From contig CANIZL010000003.1 in the NCBI GenBank assembly GCA_947471985.1, forward strand, positions 747-64,746: a stretch of 64,000 nucleotides of DNA, read 5' to 3'. This stretch comes from Verrucomicrobiota bacterium. GTDB taxonomy: Bacteria; Verrucomicrobiota; Verrucomicrobiia; Limisphaerales; UBA9464. The notes under the pieces are model-generated. The model was not told where the DNA came from and did no database searches. It worked only from the letters and a program-made list of their open reading frames with translations. The position numbers were made by a program, and so were the translations under genes. Shown here one piece after another: positions 1 to 61,370 of the stretch (position 1 is the stretch's first letter; every line of letters starts with the position of its first letter).

Positions 1-2
1 AG

Positions 3-125
3 CAGTTCATTCGGTTTCGGGACCGCTTCAGTCCGAAGCGGAAGGATGGGGCCCGCCCCATCCGAGGCGTCCCACTCCCCGGAATCACCGTGCTGCGCGA
101 CCTGCGCGTCGACGCCATCGGCTGA
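3..125 (+). CDS. 3' end of an unidentified CDS entering from the left edge (partial)
   Basis: Frame 3 is open from the window edge to TGA at 123-125. It reads QFIRFRDRFSPKRKDGARPIRGVPLPGITVLRDLRVDAIG, with G/C-rich third codon positions like the confident genes. No family recognised. Confidence 0.3.
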   Translation, partial: QFIRFRDRFSPKRKDGARPIRGVPLPGITVLRDLRVDAIG

Positions 126-377
126 CGGCTCAAAGAACCGGTCCGTTAACAGGCCGAACCGGCGCAATCCCTGCGCCGGAAAGGGAGAACTCTGCCCATT
201 GAAGGCAACCTCGGTCCGCCCGGTGCATAGCGAGGAACAAAAGTAAGCTGAGCACCGGCCAAAATAGCCATCCCGGTCCAATTCCTCCGCCCAAAGTTCA
301 CTCCGCCGCCTGTTGCATCACCAGCGGTGATGCCCCCCGCAAGATATTGAGGCTGGCTCCCTATCCGGCGAAGATAG

Positions 378-524
378 CGAACCTGGCACGATCGCTACGC
401 TGGGCGAACAGGGAGGTTGGCACCATCTTTAGGGGGATCGAATGGGGAGCCCGGCACGATGGTTTAGGCAATGAACCTGGCACGCCTTGCAGCGGGGCTG
501 GGAATATTGAACCTGGCATCTTGC
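378..524. repeat. Five phased copies of the GAACCTGGCAC-type motif (same family as 60851-61228)
   Basis: GAACCTGGCAC at 379-389, GGTTGGCAC ending at 423, CCCGGCAC ending at 457, TGAACCTGGCAC at 472-483, TGAACCTGGCAT at 508-519. The (T/C)GGCA(C/T) cores start at 384, 418, 452, 478 and 514. TTTAGG blocks are interspersed. The region is intergenic, upstream of the DUF4197 gene. Confidence 0.75.
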
Positions 525-2732: not shown

Positions 2733-3884
2733 TCAGAGGGTCGCCGCCAAATTCCGGGTCAATTTTTCCAACCACAGCGCAGCCTCCGCCTTCGCTTCGG
2801 TGGCCGGTGCCAGGTCCGGTACGATGGCCCGGGTGGACGTAAAGAGTTGCTGTTCCGGCGAGAGGTCGGGCACCGCTTCCACCACACCGGCCAATCCGTG
2901 ACAAGGCTTGCCCGCCGCCCGCGCCAAGGCAGCAATACGCCCCGTGCCCTTGCCCATCAGCGTTTGTCGATCGAGTCCGCCTTCACCGGTTAGCACCAAA
3001 TCCGCCCGGGCAATCTTTGCCTCGAGCCGGGCCAGATCGGCGAAGATCTCAAAGCCCGATTCCAATCGCCCGCCCAAAAACGCCCGCAGGGCGAACCCCA
3101 GTCCGCCCGCCGCACCGCTGCCGGCATCAACGGCATAGTCATGGCCGAGCTGCTCGCGCAGCACCTGGGCGAGACGTCCCAAGGCCGCGTCCGCCAGCGG
3201 TTGATCTGCTGCCGTCAGGCCCTTCTGCGGTCCGTAAATGGCCGAACAACCGGAGGGGCCGAGCAGGGGATTGCTGACATCACACGCTCCAATCACTTCA
3301 CCGGACCACGTCTGCAGGGGCGGCACCCAGGTGTGCAGGCGGGTGAGTTCGGTCCAACGGGTGATCTCCCGTCTGTCCGCGTCCAGGAAACGGCCGCCCA
3401 GAGCGCGGGCGAGACCGAAGCCCGCATCGTTGGTAGCACTGCCTCCCAACCCGATGATGAGTCGCTGGGCTCCATACTGCACGGCCGCGGCGATGGTTTC
3501 CCCCAAGCCCCGGGTATCGAGGTCGAACGGATGAAATTGCCCGGTCGGGAGCAACGCCAAACCAATGCTTTGGGCGGATTCAATGATGGCCGTGCGCGTG
3601 GTTGGATCCCATGCCCAACCCGCAATGCGGGGACGGTGCGCGGCGTCCATCGTCTCCACCGTGCGACTCTCGGCTTGCAACAGTTCCGCCAGCACGAGAC
3701 TGAATCCGTCCCCGCCGTCGCTCATGGGCAACAACTCCAGACTGTCGTCGGGGTACACCTGTCTCCAGCCCCGCGCCATCGCTTCGGCGGCGGCGCGGGC
3801 GGTCAGTGTCCCCTTGAACTTGTCGGGGACGACCAAGAGGTGGCGCGGTGCCCGGGAGGGACGACGCGAGGTGTCGGGGCTCAC
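2733..3884 (-). CDS. Glycerate kinase
   Basis: 383-aa ORF with a GTG start at 3884. N-terminal LLVVPDKFKGTLTA, then SDGGDGF and GGSATNDAG blocks typical of the glycerate kinase family. Confidence 0.85.
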   Translation of the reverse strand: MSPDTSRRPSRAPRHLLVVPDKFKGTLTARAAAEAMARGWRQVYPDDSLELLPMSDGGDGFSLVLAELLQAESRTVETMDAAHRPRIAGWAWDPTTRTAIIESAQSIGLALLPTGQFHPFDLDTRGLGETIAAAVQYGAQRLIIGLGGSATNDAGFGLARALGGRFLDADRREITRWTELTRLHTWVPPLQTWSGEVIGACDVSNPLLGPSGCSAIYGPQKGLTAADQPLADAALGRLAQVLREQLGHDYAVDAGSGAAGGLGFALRAFLGGRLESGFEIFADLARLEAKIARADLVLTGEGGLDRQTLMGKGTGRIAALARAAGKPCHGLAGVVEAVPDLSPEQQLFTSTRAIVPDLAPATEAKAEAALWLEKLTRNLAATL

Positions 3885-9388: not shown

Positions 9389-9647
9389 GTCCGGAAAGTG
9401 ATGGTGGAATCGACATTTCCAAGCGCCAAGTGGCGGCGCCCGGAATGAGCTGTTGACGCCCCAACCTCCCGCCGCACAATGGCTTCTTTCACCGACGGCG
9501 TGAAAGTCTGTTCCGCCCGCCGCGTTCCCGGTCTCGGGGCGCCGGGGCCAAGACCCCGATGGGTCCGGACCTGCTGTAATGATTAGTGCCATGCTGCAAA
9601 ACTCGCCCTGCCCGCCGCCGCCCCCGGTGTTGTCAGGGGGCGGTTGG

Positions 9648-12290
9648 ATGCGCTTGGTAGTGCTTTTTCTGCTCTTGAGCGCCAATTCCCGGAGCGCGTT
9701 GGCCCGTCAATTGGTCACCAATCTGGCGCAATTGCACGCTCTCTCGGCGGACGAAATCGCGGCCGCACCGTCCGCCCGGCTGCGCGCGCAGGTAACTTTT
9801 AACGACCCCCAATGGAACGTGCTTTACCTGGCGGATACGTTCCGCGGCGCCTCCGTCCATCGCTCCACGGCGTTCACCAACCATCCGGTGGGTGCCTGGG
9901 TGGAGGTCACGGGCGAGGTGAGAAACACGCCCAACGGCCCCACCATTCAGGTGACCGACATCCGGGAATTGCCGGCGGATGAGGTTGCCCTCCCGCCGCT
10001 CCAGCCGCGCCTGGTGTCGCTCGATGCATTGGTGCTGGGGCATGACGATGCGCAGTGGGTGGCCATCGAAGGGGTGATCCGATCGATCCTGCCGGAGGTC
10101 GGCTCCTGGACGATGGAATTGGGCAATCCCACGGCGTCGGTCACCGTGCATCTGGTGGATCCTTTGTCGGCGACTTCGCAACTCGCAGCGGATCTGATCA
10201 ACGCCCGGGTGCGGGTGGTCGGTGTGTGTACGGCGAGCGAGCCCGGCCGTCCCGTGACCGTCTATTGTGGCCGTCGGTCGGATATTCGCGTGCTGGCAGC
10301 CTCGCCCGTGACGTTGTTTGAAGAAGCTTTGGTGCCGCTGGGGGCTTTGTCGGGTATGGCCGATACATTTGAGGCGGCACATCGGATCCGGGTGCGGGCA
10401 ACGGTGACCTATGTGGATCCGGAAAAAACGATCTATCTGAGCGACGGACAGTACGGTCTGGCGGTCGATCCGCAGGGCGACGAGTCGGTGCAGGATGGGG
10501 ATGCCTTGGAGGTGGCGGGGTTTTTATCGCTCCGGAATGAGGAACCCCGACTGGTGCTGGCGGAGATCCGGCTACTGGGTCCCGGTGTTGCTCCCCCGCC
10601 GATCCTCGTCGGATCGGACACGCATTTTGGCGCCGCGCATTTGGCTGGGCTTATCCGGGTGCAGGGGCGTCTGGTGGTCCGCGACCGCGCCGCCGGACAT
10701 TATCTCCTGACCCTGGCCCGGCCGGAACTGGACGAATTGTTTGTGGCCGACCTCCGGTTTGAGCATCCGGCCACGAATCTGGGCCCGTGGATGCCGGACA
10801 GTTTGATGGAAGTGACCGGGATTTGGGTGGGGCTGTCCCCCGAGCGCGGACTGGCGGGCACGCTCCTGTGTCGGACGCCGGCGGATTTGCGGGTGGTGCA
10901 ACTGCCCCATTGGTGGACCCCGAAGCGGTTGCGGCTACTGGTATCGGCCGTGGCGGTGTTCAGCATCGGGGCCGTTCTCTGGGCGATCCACCTGCGGGGC
11001 CAAAATCGCGCCAAGGTCGAGCAGCTTCGCCGGCAGGTGGCGAACGAACTGGTGGTGGAACGGCGGTATCGCGAGCTTTTCGAAAACGCCACCGACACGC
11101 TGCTGATCCTGGATGCGGAAAGTACCGTGCTGGATTTGAATCCCGCAGCGGAGTTGGTGTTTGGTAAACGAAGTTCCGAATTGATGGGGCGTCCGTTGAT
11201 GGACGAACTGGGCCCGGCCAGCCAGGCGCATTTGCGCGAAATCCTGGAGTCTTCGTTAACCACGCCCTTGGAAGAACGTTTTGAATTGTCGCTGCCGCCG
11301 CGGGCCGACGGACGCGTGATCACCCTGGAAGTCTCCAGCTGCCGTCGCCTGCGCCGTCCCGTCGGCGAGCAGGTGCAGATCATCGCTCACGACATCACGC
11401 AACGGAAACAGGCGGAAGCCGAGCTGGCGGAATTGAATCGCCGACTTCTGGAAACGTCCCGCCGCACGGGCATGGCGGAAGTCGCCACCAACGTCCTGCA
11501 CAACGTGGGGAACGTGTTGAATAGCGTGAACGTCACCACCACGCTGATCCACGACTCGATGCGCGATTCCAAAGTCGCGAGCCTGGACCGGGTGGTCGCG
11601 CTGCTGGAGGAACATCAGCAGGATCTGGGCGGTTTTTTTACGAGTCATCCCAAGGGAGTCCAGGTCACCCAGTATCTGCGCCAGTTGTCCACCCACCTGC
11701 TGGGCGAACAGGCCGCCCTGTTGGCGGACGTGAAATCGCTGGCCCGCAATGTGGAACACATCAAGGGCATCGTGGCCCGGCAGCAGGACCATCGCGGTGC
11801 GGTGGGCCTTCGGGAGCGGGTGATGCTCGCGCAGTTGGTGGAGGAGGCGTACGTTCTCTGCGCTCCGCCCGGGACGCCCGGCGCGGTGGCGATCGTGCGT
11901 GAATTGGCGGTGATGCCGCCCGTGCCCCTGGATCAGCATCAGGTCCTGCAGATCCTCGTGAACCTGCTCCGCAATGCCCTGCAATCGGTGGAGCGGGCCG
12001 GGCCGGGGGAGCCGGGGGCCGGAGTCACGATTCGTACCGAATGGGACGGCGCGGAATGGATCCGGGTGCAGGTGAGTGATACCGGGGTGGGGATTGCCCC
12101 GGAGAATCTCACCCGAATCTTCGCCCACGGCTTCACCACCAAACCCGGCGGCCACGGATTTGGCCTGCACTCCAGCGCCCTGGCTGCGCGGGCGATGGGC
12201 GGCTCGCTTCGGGCGGAGAGTGCCGGTCCCGGATTCGGGGCCACCTTTACGCTCGAACTCCCCGTGAAACCCGCCGTTGAATCCGTATGA
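9648..12290 (+). CDS. Membrane sensor histidine kinase (large periplasmic domain, TM, PAS, kinase core)
   Basis: ORF 9579..12290, with the ATG at 9648 giving the signal-like [16 protein letters not shown] segment [20 protein letters not shown], a PAS-like region, the H-box-like [14 protein letters not shown], and ATPase G-boxes DTGVGI and GGHGFGLH. Confidence 0.85.
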
Positions 12291-27159: not shown

Positions 27160-28908
27160 ATGTGGTCCTTTTTGGGAATGAATCAGCTTATGAGACTCCG
27201 ATGCTTGGTTTTGCGCTCTCCGGGGCGGTCGCAGCCGGGTGGCGCGGCCCGGGGTGGCCGGGGATTGCCGGGCGCGGGGTGGGTCGTTCTGTTGGTCATG
27301 GTGGGGGTATTTTATGCCTGTCCCGGCATCATTGCGGCGGCAACCGAGGGGCCCCCTGCGCGAATTCGGAAGGCGGTGCGCTTGCCCACCATCACCGTCT
27401 CATTCCAGTTTGGCTTCGAGAATTCGCAGGACTGGCTGAGTGAGCCCGAAGTGGCGGATCCGGCGGCCGAGATTGTCCGGCTGCGCTCCCAATTGAAGGG
27501 GGATTTGCGGGATGCGGTAATTCTGGCGGAAATTGCCCGGGCCACGGTCCAGCTGGGCGATGGGGCCGCCCGCGCGGCCGCCGGAAAGGAGTCGGTTGCG
27601 GCCTGGCGGAAGTGGGCTGCTGCGGCCCCGGAGGATCGTACCGTCGGCGTGGGATTGGCCAAGGCCTTGCGCCTGCAATTGGAGTATGAGGAGGCCGAGA
27701 CGGTTTTAAGGAAAGCGATCCAGGGCGCGGAGCCTTCCTGGGAGTTGCAATATGAATTGGCGACGACGCTCGGGGAGCTGGCCTTCCGCCAGTTCTATGG
27801 CAAGTCCTCGGGAGACGCGGATTCGCTTTCGCGGGGGGCGGCGGGGAAGGCGTCCGATCGGGAAAAAGTCGCGCGCTACCTGAAGGAGGCCCTCCAGTTG
27901 GCCGACGCTCTGGTGACCTCGGATCCGGGGAATCCCCGCGGATGGTCCCGGCGCGCACGCTTGTTATCCAATCAGGGGATGATTCGAATTGCCACCCAGG
28001 CGGAGGCGGCGTCTGCGGGTGCCGAGGGAATGCGGCGAATGTATTTGGCGATGCTGCCGGAAGTGGCGATCAAGGATCTGGAGACGGCCGTGTCCCTGCG
28101 ACCCAACGATCCGCGTCTGCTGATGGTTTTGTTGATGCATCGGCTGGCGGGCGATTTGCCGGACTTGGCGGCGGCGGCCATCGGCGGGACGAAGGGTGAG
28201 GGGGGCGGACTGGCGGAACTATCGTCCGCGAAGCAAGCCGCAGTAGGCCGCACGATTTCGGCGCTCGATCGTCTGGGCGAGAGTGCGGATCATCTACTGG
28301 CGGCGACGGCGTTGGAACATTCGGCGATGTTGAACCTGATTGTCCGGGGTGACCGGACCCGGGCGGTGGAACGCGCGCGTCGAGCGATGCGCCTGGGTTC
28401 GCCGCACCAGGAAGCATTTAGCGTGGCGATGCTGGGGACCACGCGCGGTGAAAACCATGATTGGAATCTGGCGGAGGAGATTGTCCGGGAGCGCCTGCGG
28501 GTAAAACGCGATGGCAGCACCTGGCTTTTTCTGGTGAAGATCTTGAACGAACAAGGGAAGCCGGCCCCAGCGTTGGAGGAGGCGCATGCCGCCCTGAAGG
28601 CGCTGCCGGATGATGCGGGGTTGGCCGTGGCTCACATGGCTTTGCATCTTCGCGACGGCAGTTTTCCCGGAGCCGGGAGTGAGAGTGAGATTCCGAATTT
28701 TGCCGAGATCGAGAAACAGATCAGTGCCTTGCCGGATGGTGAATTTCGGGAGGCTCTGGGGATCAATTATCTGATCACTTCAGCCGTGTTTGTCGGCCTC
28801 AGCGGCGATTCAACCACGGCCCGGAAACTTGCCGAAAGAACGGCACGACAATTTCCCCAGGACGAGTATGCGAAGCTGATGAGCGAGTTGTTGAAGTCGT
28901 TGCCCTAG
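27160..28908 (+). CDS. Membrane-anchored helical-repeat (TPR-like) protein
   Basis: ORF 27040..28908. The ATG at 27160 avoids overlap with the upstream gene, but the start is uncertain. TM segment GWVVLLVMVGVFYACPGIIAAA is followed by a long Ala/Leu/Arg-rich helical repeat region. Confidence 0.6.
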   Translation: MWSFLGMNQLMRLRCLVLRSPGRSQPGGAARGGRGLPGAGWVVLLVMVGVFYACPGIIAAATEGPPARIRKAVRLPTITVSFQFGFENSQDWLSEPEVADPAAEIVRLRSQLKGDLRDAVILAEIARATVQLGDGAARAAAGKESVAAWRKWAAAAPEDRTVGVGLAKALRLQLEYEEAETVLRKAIQGAEPSWELQYELATTLGELAFRQFYGKSSGDADSLSRGAAGKASDREKVARYLKEALQLADALVTSDPGNPRGWSRRARLLSNQGMIRIATQAEAASAGAEGMRRMYLAMLPEVAIKDLETAVSLRPNDPRLLMVLLMHRLAGDLPDLAAAAIGGTKGEGGGLAELSSAKQAAVGRTISALDRLGESADHLLAATALEHSAMLNLIVRGDRTRAVERARRAMRLGSPHQEAFSVAMLGTTRGENHDWNLAEEIVRERLRVKRDGSTWLFLVKILNEQGKPAPALEEAHAALKALPDDAGLAVAHMALHLRDGSFPGAGSESEIPNFAEIEKQISALPDGEFREALGINYLITSAVFVGLSGDSTTARKLAERTARQFPQDEYAKLMSELLKSLP

Positions 28909-28929: not shown

Positions 28930-29002
28930 GGCCAATGAACCTGGCACCGTGTTCCCGGCACGGATCGCGACGTTGTGAGTCACCCTCCGCCAGCCTGCCC
29001 GC
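28930..29002. repeat. Solitary copy of the TGAACCTGGCAC repeat family
   Basis: GGCCAATGAACCTGGCAC, with the 12-mer at 28936-28947; compare AGGCAATGAACCTGGCAC at 466-483. Also CCGGCAC at 28955-28961 and AGCCTGCCC at 28992-29000; compare GAGCCTGCCCCCCC in the 60.9-kb array. Intergenic. Confidence 0.55.
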
Positions 29003-29098
29003 CAACGATCCGGTCGGATTGCCTCCCCCCCAATCGCGCCGTCATTGTGTGAGCCGGAATTCGCTGTACGGCCCATCGCCACCAATTCCTTCGAAGCG

Positions 29099-60754: not shown

Positions 60755-60850
60755 GCCGGAAACTTCCTCGGGAACCCGCGGATTCCAAAAGCGATTGCGG
60801 GAGCGGTGGCGATTATGGCCGGGGCTTTCAGATCTGAGGTGGATTGGGTG

Positions 60851-61228
60851 GGGCAAATACTGAACCTGGCACGAAGTTCCTACGGCTCGTTTAGGGAGCC
60901 TGCCCCCCCATTTCGCCGAAGCCGATTGGGGAACCTGGCACCTCATCCAACCCTCACTCCCACAGGGCGCCACCTTGAACTTGGCACACCATCCCGGGGG
61001 GGAAGCGCGCAGGGCAAATACTGAGCCTGGTACGAAGTTTTTACCGCCCGTTTAGCGAGCCTGCCCCCCCAGTTCGGCTGACCCCGATTAGGGAGCTTGG
61101 TACCCACTCCAACTTTCACGTCGCCAAGGCGTGACTTTGAGCTTGGCACGCCATTCGGGGGGGGGCGCGAAGGTCAAATTTTGAACTTGGGGCGGCGTTT
61201 GCACCCCCCCGTTTAGGGAGCCTGCCCC
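60851..61228. repeat. Diverged tandem array, about 2.4 units of 160-161 bp, built on a TGAACCTGGCAC-type core
   Basis: Units start at 60851, 61012 and 61172. The 12-mer variants are at 60861, 60930, 60976, 61022, 61092, 61138 and 61182. The conserved block CGTTTAG[GC]GAGCCTGCCCC occurs in all three units. C7 and G7-G9 tracts occur in units 1 and 2. Confidence 0.9.
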
Positions 61229-61370
61229 AAATTCAGCCGCGTGGGCGTCGGTACCGAAGGTCGGGTCAACCAATTGCAAGCCTCCGGAACCGGGTGGGAA
61301 ATGTTTTGCCTTGGTTCGCGAATGCCCGCTTTACCCGCGGTCGCGGGTGGGGCAGTATGCGCGCCTACCC

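Follow-up and report, generated by a model that had tools for sequence, protein, structure and literature searches.

We analyzed a 64,000-nucleotide stretch of a Verrucomicrobiota genome (Verrucomicrobiia; Limisphaerales; UBA9464; GenBank assembly GCA_947471985.1, contig CANIZL010000003.1, positions 747 to 64,746), referred to here as the window, with a focus on a tandem repeat at 60851–61228. The repeat lies in a 616-nt spacer (60755–61370) between a minus-strand Peptidase_S9 gene (start 60754) and a plus-strand gene for a Gfo/Idh/MocA oxidoreductase with a twin-arginine signal (SRRQFL, start 61371). Tandem Repeats Finder, run on the window, reported a single array with a period of 161, 2.3 copies, 77% matches, and 3% indels. 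A separate repeat search of the array also gave a 161/162-nt register. A previous reading made from the letters alone (hereafter the sequence-only reading) had described an array with a period of ~160 bp here, and the array, its 12-mers, its C7, G7, and G9 tracts, and both flanking gene starts all lie where that reading had placed them.

With up to one mismatch allowed, the window contains 12 occurrences of the 12-mer TGARCYTGGYAC where 1.23 would be expected, an approximately 10-fold over-representation, and 0 of 100 shuffles reached 12 occurrences. The sequence-only reading had counted three 12-mers per unit. These are present, but a fourth was missed: the CGTTTAGGGAGCCTGCCCC/CGTTTAG[GC]GAGCCTGCCCC block, which that reading had listed as a separate element, is a diverged core GGAGCCTGCCCC (12.0 and 11.6 bits with the family matrix), giving four cores per unit rather than three. 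Each 161-bp unit thus consists of four sub-repeats at spacings of about 35, 35, 46, and 46 nt. The family core is the 12-nt sequence TGAACCTGGCAC, usually with ATA-N directly 5′ of it. The candidate site may also be written in the longer forms ATACTGAACCTGGCAC and ATACTGAACCTGGCACGAAG, and its ancestral form as TAAAGTGACAGGTTCAAAGT. The 161/160 period is not divisible by three, which marks the array as non-coding, and open reading frames that cross it simply translate the repeat. The peptide pattern WGGRL[AP]KRAV.TS.Q.QYLP does appear twice, as previously reported, in spurious minus-strand reading frames. When the literature was searched for the 12-mer, all matches were to unrelated sequences (PCR primers, for example) from work on eukaryotes.

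Units 1 and 2 are 85% identical within cores and 82% identical within spacers (Fisher p = 0.65). No selective constraint on the cores since the tandem duplication was detected by this comparison, and the earlier proposal that the blocks persist through constraint rather than recent duplication finds no support in it. Array copy number is equal in three strains (the window, L001, and L002) in a strain alignment. All differences in the spacer between the window and the other two strains fall within 36 nt (61157–61192): G9 versus GGGGGGTGGG, T/A at 61175, and G/A at 61192. The last of these brings core copy 9 of the other strains closer to the consensus.

The array core recurs at other intergenic loci

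Six further copies of the core, some of them degenerate, lie at 348–519 and a single one at 28936, and all copies in the window are intergenic and on the plus strand (Table 1). Sub-repeat spacing at 348–519 is 26–36 nt, similar to the spacing inside the 161-bp unit. The sequence at 28936, TGAACCTGGCACCGTGTT, shares 18 nt of identity with one copy in the 5′ flank of a gene resembling those for REP-associated tyrosine transposases (RAYTs; REP, repetitive extragenic palindromic), described below. Approximately 90 nt downstream of the 28936 core lies a C7 tract (29025–29031), and a CAGCCTGCCCGCC stretch resembling the GAGCCTGCCCC subtype is found at 28990–29002. The 28936 region may therefore be a decayed two-site remnant rather than a single site.

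We built a 20-nt weight matrix from 16 copies lying wholly outside the window, taken from the 5′ array of the source organism's RAYT-like gene and from the flanks of homologues L133–L136. This matrix produced 15 window matches of at least 12 bits; Markov shuffles produced 1.7 on average and 7 at most. Six matches are at 348–519, one is at 28936, and eight are at 60861–61149, all on the plus strand and confined to three intergenic regions. Recovery of eight array sites by a matrix trained elsewhere places the array in the same repeat family as the ends of the RAYT-like gene cassette. For the 161-bp unit itself, a blastn search against the window and all collected loci showed no dispersed copies, matching just the short core elsewhere. 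Significant similarity between the unit and these loci is confined to ~15–29 nt around the core, implying that a short site rather than the unit was dispersed.

A neutral tandem duplication of ordinary intergenic DNA, involving neither a dispersed family nor an enzyme, would explain why the units diverge uniformly, why strains share one copy number, and why the units match nothing else in the window outside their cores. We consider this explanation very unlikely: 1.7 matches are expected in the entire window where the outside-trained matrix finds eight in the array. The ATA-N 5′ extension is also shared, and the sub-repeat structure is older than the 161-bp duplication.

Inverted arrays of the core flank a RAYT-like gene

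The window begins within the RAYT-like gene, ~60 kb upstream of the array. Its flanking sequence was reached through the DUF4197 gene (612–1442) in other assemblies of the same organism. Just outside the window, a 5′ array with six inverted cores (L123:8263–8453) precedes the gene. Its copies, which read as the reverse complement of the core, are GTACCAGGTTCA, GTGCCAGGTTCA, GTGCCACGCTCC, GTGGCAGGTTCA, GTACCAGGCTCC, and GTGGCAGGCTCG. The reverse complement of the 5′ array is colinear, core by core over ~200 nt, with the 3′ array at 348–519. The RAYT-like gene thus lies between long imperfect terminal inverted repeats (TIRs), each made of six direct sub-repeats.

The same arrangement is present, with 6 + 5 cores, in L137, an independent lake-metagenome contig whose protein is 95% identical. 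It is found in part in L133, L170, and L215 (87–89% identity), with 4 + 1 cores of at least 12 bits in L133. Homology between the source organism and L133 (87% identical) is confined to the array–gene–array segment (L123 8244–9814; 1.57 kb, 83% identity), and the surrounding genes are unrelated. The sequence-only reading had listed a REP-like element among its possibilities, and the recurrence of the core at two other intergenic loci, together with its inverted arrays around a RAYT-like gene, supports this. That reading had also treated a match between the units and a known insertion sequence (IS) or miniature inverted-repeat transposable element end as evidence against itself. The outcome comes near to such a match, in that the cores, though not entire units, correspond to the inverted arrays at the two ends of a transposase-like gene.

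Some further features accompany these cassettes. In the array-bearing clade, a GC-rich hairpin, GGAACCCCGCCCCGTTGGGCGGGGTCC, is conserved immediately before the RAYT-like start codon (L123:8490–8530, L133:9945–9985, and L137:332–372), where it stands in place of the compact core/-35/-10 layout of distant relatives. Four independent Logan contigs from four sequencing runs (L128–L131) share a precise start point, the first base of GAACCTGGCAC (window 379), and many contigs with RAYT-like homologues are barely longer than the gene itself; assembly graphs appear to break at the repeat.

The flanked gene encodes a long class 2 TnpA-Y1 protein

The product of the RAYT-like gene is a 322-residue protein of the Y1 HUH type. 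It scores 44.4 bits against Pfam Y1_Tnp, above the cut-off of 23, and its best NCBIfam model is REP-associated tyrosine transposase (NF047646; 53.4 bits, E = 2.4e-14). By these scores, the protein is related to the curated RayT family and is not an equivalog. Among 39 homologues, H60 and H62 of the HuH motif NHFH and Y169, D171, L172, and N173 of the YIDLNP motif show no variation; P174 is nearly invariant. An AlphaFold2 model of the protein (pLDDT 84.3, pTM 0.87) has as its top Foldseek match in the PDB entry 4er8 (E = 5.6e-6, TM 0.74 on the target), which is E. coli TnpA-REP bound to a REP hairpin. IS200/IS605 transposases come next in the match list. Homologues of ~322 residues are common in Verrucomicrobiota, and several are annotated by JGI as ‘REP element-mobilizing transposase RayT’.

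On its Y---NP signature, the protein falls into class 2 of the TnpA-Y1 classification by Quentin et al. (2018; PMC6006769). In its NHFH and YIDLNP motifs, length, and insertions, it resembles subclasses 2.1 and 2.3 of the same scheme, judged by the published description rather than by the authors' hidden Markov models.

An IS200/IS605 insertion sequence was considered and ruled out. Such elements encode a TnpA of ~150 residues with a Y---Q motif, carry subterminal hairpins and often tnpB, and occur in multiple near-identical copies. The protein described here has 322 residues and a Y---NP motif, and scores 18 bits against the IS200 model NF033573 (cut-off 55). The sub-repeats form no hairpins, and no tnpB was found in the neighborhoods.

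A single promoter-proximal core is conserved across the protein family

We compared 80 further metagenome loci of relatives, together with L134–L136. The distant set comprised the 65 loci that fell below 85% identity and had over 80 nt of sequence upstream. In 59 of these 65 loci, GTGNCAGGTTCA (up to one mismatch) is present on the sense strand within 200 nt upstream of the gene, and in 50 of the 59 it starts 51–55 nt before the start codon. It is followed within a few nucleotides by a TTGAC(A/T) -35-like hexamer and, after ~17 nt, by a TAGGNT -10-like hexamer (the latter in the loci inspected). This promoter-proximal conservation indicates that the core is an ancestral cis-element of the gene family, placed like an operator or like a promoter-overlapping transposase-binding end.

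No downstream core, conserved 3′ element, or second site was found in the distant homologues, whose other one-mismatch matches apparently lie in conserved coding sequence and lack the extended flanks. Only in the clade of at least 87% identity has TGTCAC changed to TGGCAC or TGCCAC and the core become multiplied and dispersed. Some distant relatives have two or three promoter-proximal copies (L136:9852–9895, L144:~680–740, and L159:~1305–1345), and L136 has a perfect tandem duplication of ATAGAGTGACAGGTTCAATG. Such duplications look like incipient amplification independent of the source clade.

The position of the single site, which abuts the gene's own -35-like hexamer in most family members, is that of an operator or activator site. 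This raises the alternative that regulation has been co-opted, with the RAYT-like protein serving as a DNA-binding regulator and the ten array sites controlling the S9 peptidase and/or oxidoreductase promoters or titrating the protein. Read on the minus strand, toward the S9 peptidase, the TGAAC-type cores have the sequences GTGCCAGGTTCA-GTAT-TTGCCC and ...TTCA-AAAT-TTGACC, which mimic the ancestral core-N4-8-TTGAC layout. The hexamers 4 nt past the core are TTGCCC, TTGCCC, and TTGACC at 60851–60875, 61012–61036, and 61172–61196, respectively, and the nearest core ends 107 nt from the S9 peptidase start codon. We nevertheless regard this alternative as unlikely. Four oxidoreductase relatives (76–82% amino-acid identity) lack the motif in their upstream regions and lack synteny, and the two genes are not neighbors there; the sequence-only suggestion of arrayed operators for the two flanking genes loses ground for the same reason. 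The copies at 348–519 and 28936 are downstream of genes and, in the same orientation, would drive antisense transcription. In addition, the cores have been no better conserved than their spacers since duplication, and no sigma-70-like promoter was detected in the region.

The array resembles neither a structured RNA nor a set of promoters

The sequence-only reading had also suggested a structured leader or noncoding RNA in which the C- and G-tracts could pair. The C7 and G7/G9 tracts, ~90 nt apart, do pair in minimum-free-energy folds of units 1 and 2. Against this, the fold energies of the units (z = +2.1 and 0.0) and of the whole spacer (z = -0.2) are no better than those of shuffles, and Rfam returned no match for the array at gathering thresholds or at E <= 10. 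No terminators were found in the array region. The C7 tract of unit 3 lies elsewhere, orthologous regions are not conserved, and around the RAYT-like gene these cores are found in either orientation. An RNA of this kind is scarcely credible given these results.

We also searched for the hairpins that define REP sequences. Single-stranded DNA folds of the nine sub-repeat intervals, on both strands, gave z-scores from -2.1 to +1.5 with no recurrent stem, which rules out a hairpin REP.

The least probable explanation is that the array consists of stacked alternative promoters. TGGCAC equals the sigma-54 -24 consensus, and TGAAC/GGAAC resembles the -35 element of extracytoplasmic function (ECF) sigma factors. 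A sigma-54 promoter consists of TGGCAC (-24), 5 nt, and then TTGC (-12). No copy has TTGC or GC at the spacing needed for a -12 element, the downstream pentamers being TCCTA, CCAAC, CCCGG, TTTTA, and others. TGAAC is separated from CGT by ~22 nt rather than the 16–17 nt of ECF promoters, and the relatives' core TGTCAC destroys the GG dinucleotide. For sigma-54, ECF, and sigma-70 promoters alike, the spacing to the -12 or -10 element fails in every copy, and a consensus scan was empty.

A dispersed, non-palindromic repeat family associated with a RAYT-like gene

The array is a REP-like but non-palindromic dispersed repeat, a locally duplicated cluster within a RAYT/TIRYT-associated family. Our preferred interpretation, to which we assign a probability of roughly three in four, is that it comprises some ten copies, all in one orientation, of the DNA site that is cognate to the RAYT-like (TnpA-Y1 class 2, HUH/tyrosine) protein. 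According to this interpretation, the ancestral state would have been a single site abutting the -35-like hexamer upstream of the RAYT-like gene. In the source clade (at least 87% protein identity), the site has expanded into a pair of inverted arrays of ~200 bp at the gene's two ends, each with as many as six sub-repeats, resulting in a TIRtron/REPtron-like cassette of array, Y1 HUH gene, and inverted array. Copies would have been seeded into unrelated intergenic regions. At 60851–61228, a four-site block of 161 bp may have been tandem-duplicated ~2.3 times by slippage or unequal exchange between sub-repeats, and the copies would since have drifted apart uniformly.

By analogy with E. coli TnpA-REP and its REP and with TIRYT proteins and their TIRs, the RAYT-like protein would bind the core. 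Its binding to the array at 60851–61228 is plausible, and the array most probably serves neither neighboring gene in a dedicated way. The sites may have been spread by HUH/tyrosine activity or by recombination between copies, as proposed for RAYT/REP and TIRYT/TIR systems (PMC3733652; PMC6006769).

GC skew is positive in every 8-kb block of the window (+0.07 overall), and the plus strand carries most of the genes from 9.5 to 53 kb. The plus strand of the window is thus probably the leading-strand sequence, and all dispersed cores lie on it. IS608 and ISDra2 are known to insert into the lagging-strand template. The plus-strand copies and the positive skew would fit a similar preference here, a faint hint given that the dispersed cores amount to three loci.

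Several observations weigh against the preferred interpretation. The NF047646 score is below that model's 80-bit equivalog cut-off. The sub-repeats lack hairpins, and to our knowledge every structurally characterized Y1 enzyme recognizes a hairpin. The equal copy number in L001 and L002 gives no sign of recent activity at the array. Source-genome coverage is ~82 kb and holds two loci (28936 and 60861–61228) beyond the gene flanks, so that ‘genome-wide’ rests on three loci plus these flanks. Finally, Quentin et al. (2018; PMC6006769) found no REP-like sequences for subclasses 2.1 and 2.3, the ones with long C-terminal regions that the protein most resembles.

A broader proposal is possible but somewhat doubtful. 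The ~322-residue Verrucomicrobial TnpA-Y1 family could be a domesticated HUH enzyme that recognizes a linear, non-hairpin site of 12–20 nt, ATA-N-TGAACCTG[G/T]CAC. Normally the promoter of the gene itself would hold a single copy of this site, which could serve in autoregulation, and one clade would have begun to copy it into direct arrays and new loci. If so, Y1 transposase relatives would have a hairpin-independent mode of recognition and propagation, and the clade would offer a natural snapshot of a REP-like family born from an operator.

An otherwise unexplained repeat is in this way connected to RAYT and TIRYT systems, and specifically to a branch of long 2.1/2.3-like Y1 proteins with no previously reported cognate DNA. 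The analysis provides a precise candidate binding site, found beside a -35-like hexamer in 59 of 65 loci, and one clade with array expansion. A short oligonucleotide and a single purified protein would thereby suffice to address directly what domesticated HUH proteins bind and how REP-like families originate. In genome annotation, arrays of this type should not be interpreted as operators or noncoding RNAs of adjacent genes, and they also seem to interrupt short-read assemblies.

Comparison with known repeat systems

Among described systems, the TIRtron/TIRYT repeat family comes closest, followed by REPtrons. In TIRtrons, RAYT-like genes are flanked by TIRs that are not REPs, TIR copies occur in dispersed families as single copies, dimers, or clusters, and TIRs have proliferated in some lineages only (Di Nocera et al., 2013; PMC3733652). 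The Y1 HUH gene described here similarly lies between non-hairpin TIRs (~200 nt, colinear), and its core recurs as one single copy (28936) and one cluster of ten (60861–61228). Four features differ: each TIR consists of some six ~34-nt sub-repeats in direct orientation, organized around a 12-nt core, dispersed copies all have one orientation, the core is present family-wide as a single promoter-proximal site, and the motif GGGGWSAS is not conserved in the arrays, where the core is TGAACCTG(G/T)CAC. GGGGWSAS is common to many, though not all, TIRYT TIRs and is not obligatory (PMC3733652).

Like REPs, REPINs, and BIMEs with their RAYTs, the repeats are short and extragenic, form clusters, and flank a single Y1 gene in inverted orientation, as in REPtrons; the predicted protein fold is also closest to E. 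coli TnpA-REP (4er8). In contrast to REPs, they lack the defining palindrome or stem-loop of 20–40 nt, and copies are direct rather than inverted doublets. As for the GT[AG]G at the stem foot of REPs, minus-strand cores begin GTGC, GTAC, or GTGG (GTGA in relatives), a GT[AG]-like start with no adjoining stem. The protein is longer than RAYTs (322 versus ~165 residues) and under the NCBIfam cut-off.

Subclasses 2.1 and 2.3 share with the protein a Y---NP motif (here YIDLNP), an NH[YF]H HuH motif, a long insertion between the HuH and tyrosine motifs, and a long C-terminal tail, and the median length of subclass 2.3 is 325 residues (PMC6006769), against ~322 here. Unlike what is described for these subclasses, the present family has a conserved candidate cognate site and, in one clade, a repeat family. 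Several direct short sites per end, inverted between ends, are also typical of Tn7, Mu, and plant En/Spm. These elements use DDE transposases and are demonstrably mobile, whereas the system described here has an HUH Y1 protein and putative mobility. Distinctive here are ends of six direct sub-repeats on a non-palindromic 12-nt core, arrays of one orientation, a family-wide promoter core, and the association of repeats with a protein type reported without cognate repeats.

Feature coordinates and additional repeats

Table 1. Positions of the repeat copies and of the RAYT-like gene in the window.
Feature	Position	Strand	Sequence	Score or basis
RAYT-like Y1 HUH gene, 322 aa; last 41 codons and stop (123–125) in window	1..125	+		Full gene L123:8546–9514
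3′ terminal array of RAYT-like gene, six forward cores at 348, 378, 412, 446, 472, 508	348..519	+		Matrix; colinear with reverse complement of 5′ array
Solitary core, intergenic, past TPR gene stop at 28908	28936..28947	+		17.7 bits
Tandem array, 2.3 copies of 161-bp block	60851..61228	+		Tandem Repeats Finder, repeat search, unit alignment
Core copy 1, 5′ extension ATAC	60861..60872	+	TGAACCTGGCAC	25.1 bits (RAYT-flank matrix); at least 14 bits (matrix trained wholly outside window)
Core copy 2, diverged subtype	60895..60906	+	GGAGCCTGCCCC	12.0 bits; resembles GAGCCTGCCAC, GGGAGCGTGGCAC of RAYT flanks
Core copy 3	60930..60941	+	GGAACCTGGCAC	17.8 bits
Core copy 4	60976..60987	+	TGAACTTGGCAC	15.3 bits
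Core copy 5, 5′ extension ATAC	61022..61033	+	TGAGCCTGGTAC	21.8 bits
Core copy 6, diverged subtype	61056..61067	+	CGAGCCTGCCCC	11.6 bits
Core copy 7	61092..61103	+	GGAGCTTGGTAC	14.3 bits
Core copy 8	61138..61149	+	TGAGCTTGGCAC	20.2 bits
Core copy 9, degenerate	61182..61193	+	TGAACTTGGGGC; TGAACTTGGGAC in strains L001, L002	13.9 bits in L001; strain alignment
Core copy 10, diverged subtype, array end	61217..61228	+	GGAGCCTGCCCC	Corresponds to block at 60895–60906

We also scanned the contig collection with the pattern GAACCTGGCAN{20,50}GAACYTGGCA, which was uninformative for this repeat family. Among the matches listed, GAACCTGGCA pairs 20–50 nt apart occur in very many unrelated genomes (L003–L116), often with a periodicity of 15–42 nt. 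The periodic spacing, together with the reading of GAACCTGGCA as Glu-Pro-Gly, suggests that most of the listed matches are probably in-frame coding tandem repeats. Such pairs are a trap for pattern searches with the core motif.

The oxidoreductase upstream region is repeat-rich in two lineages, with unrelated repeats. In the closest relative, with an 82% identical oxidoreductase, the equally long (~600-nt) upstream spacer (L119:1277–1872; L120:1538–2133) is filled by a different, palindromic repeat family (AATCCCAACGGGATT... and GCAACCCC..GGGGTTGC) that includes a 34-nt inverted pair with 88% complementarity. The L119 contig also has hairpin repeats of the CCCTCTCCCC/GGGGAGAGGG type at several intergenic sites (including 3380–3408/3549–3577) and a 122-nt direct repeat (86% identity) at 3284–3405 and 9569–9690.

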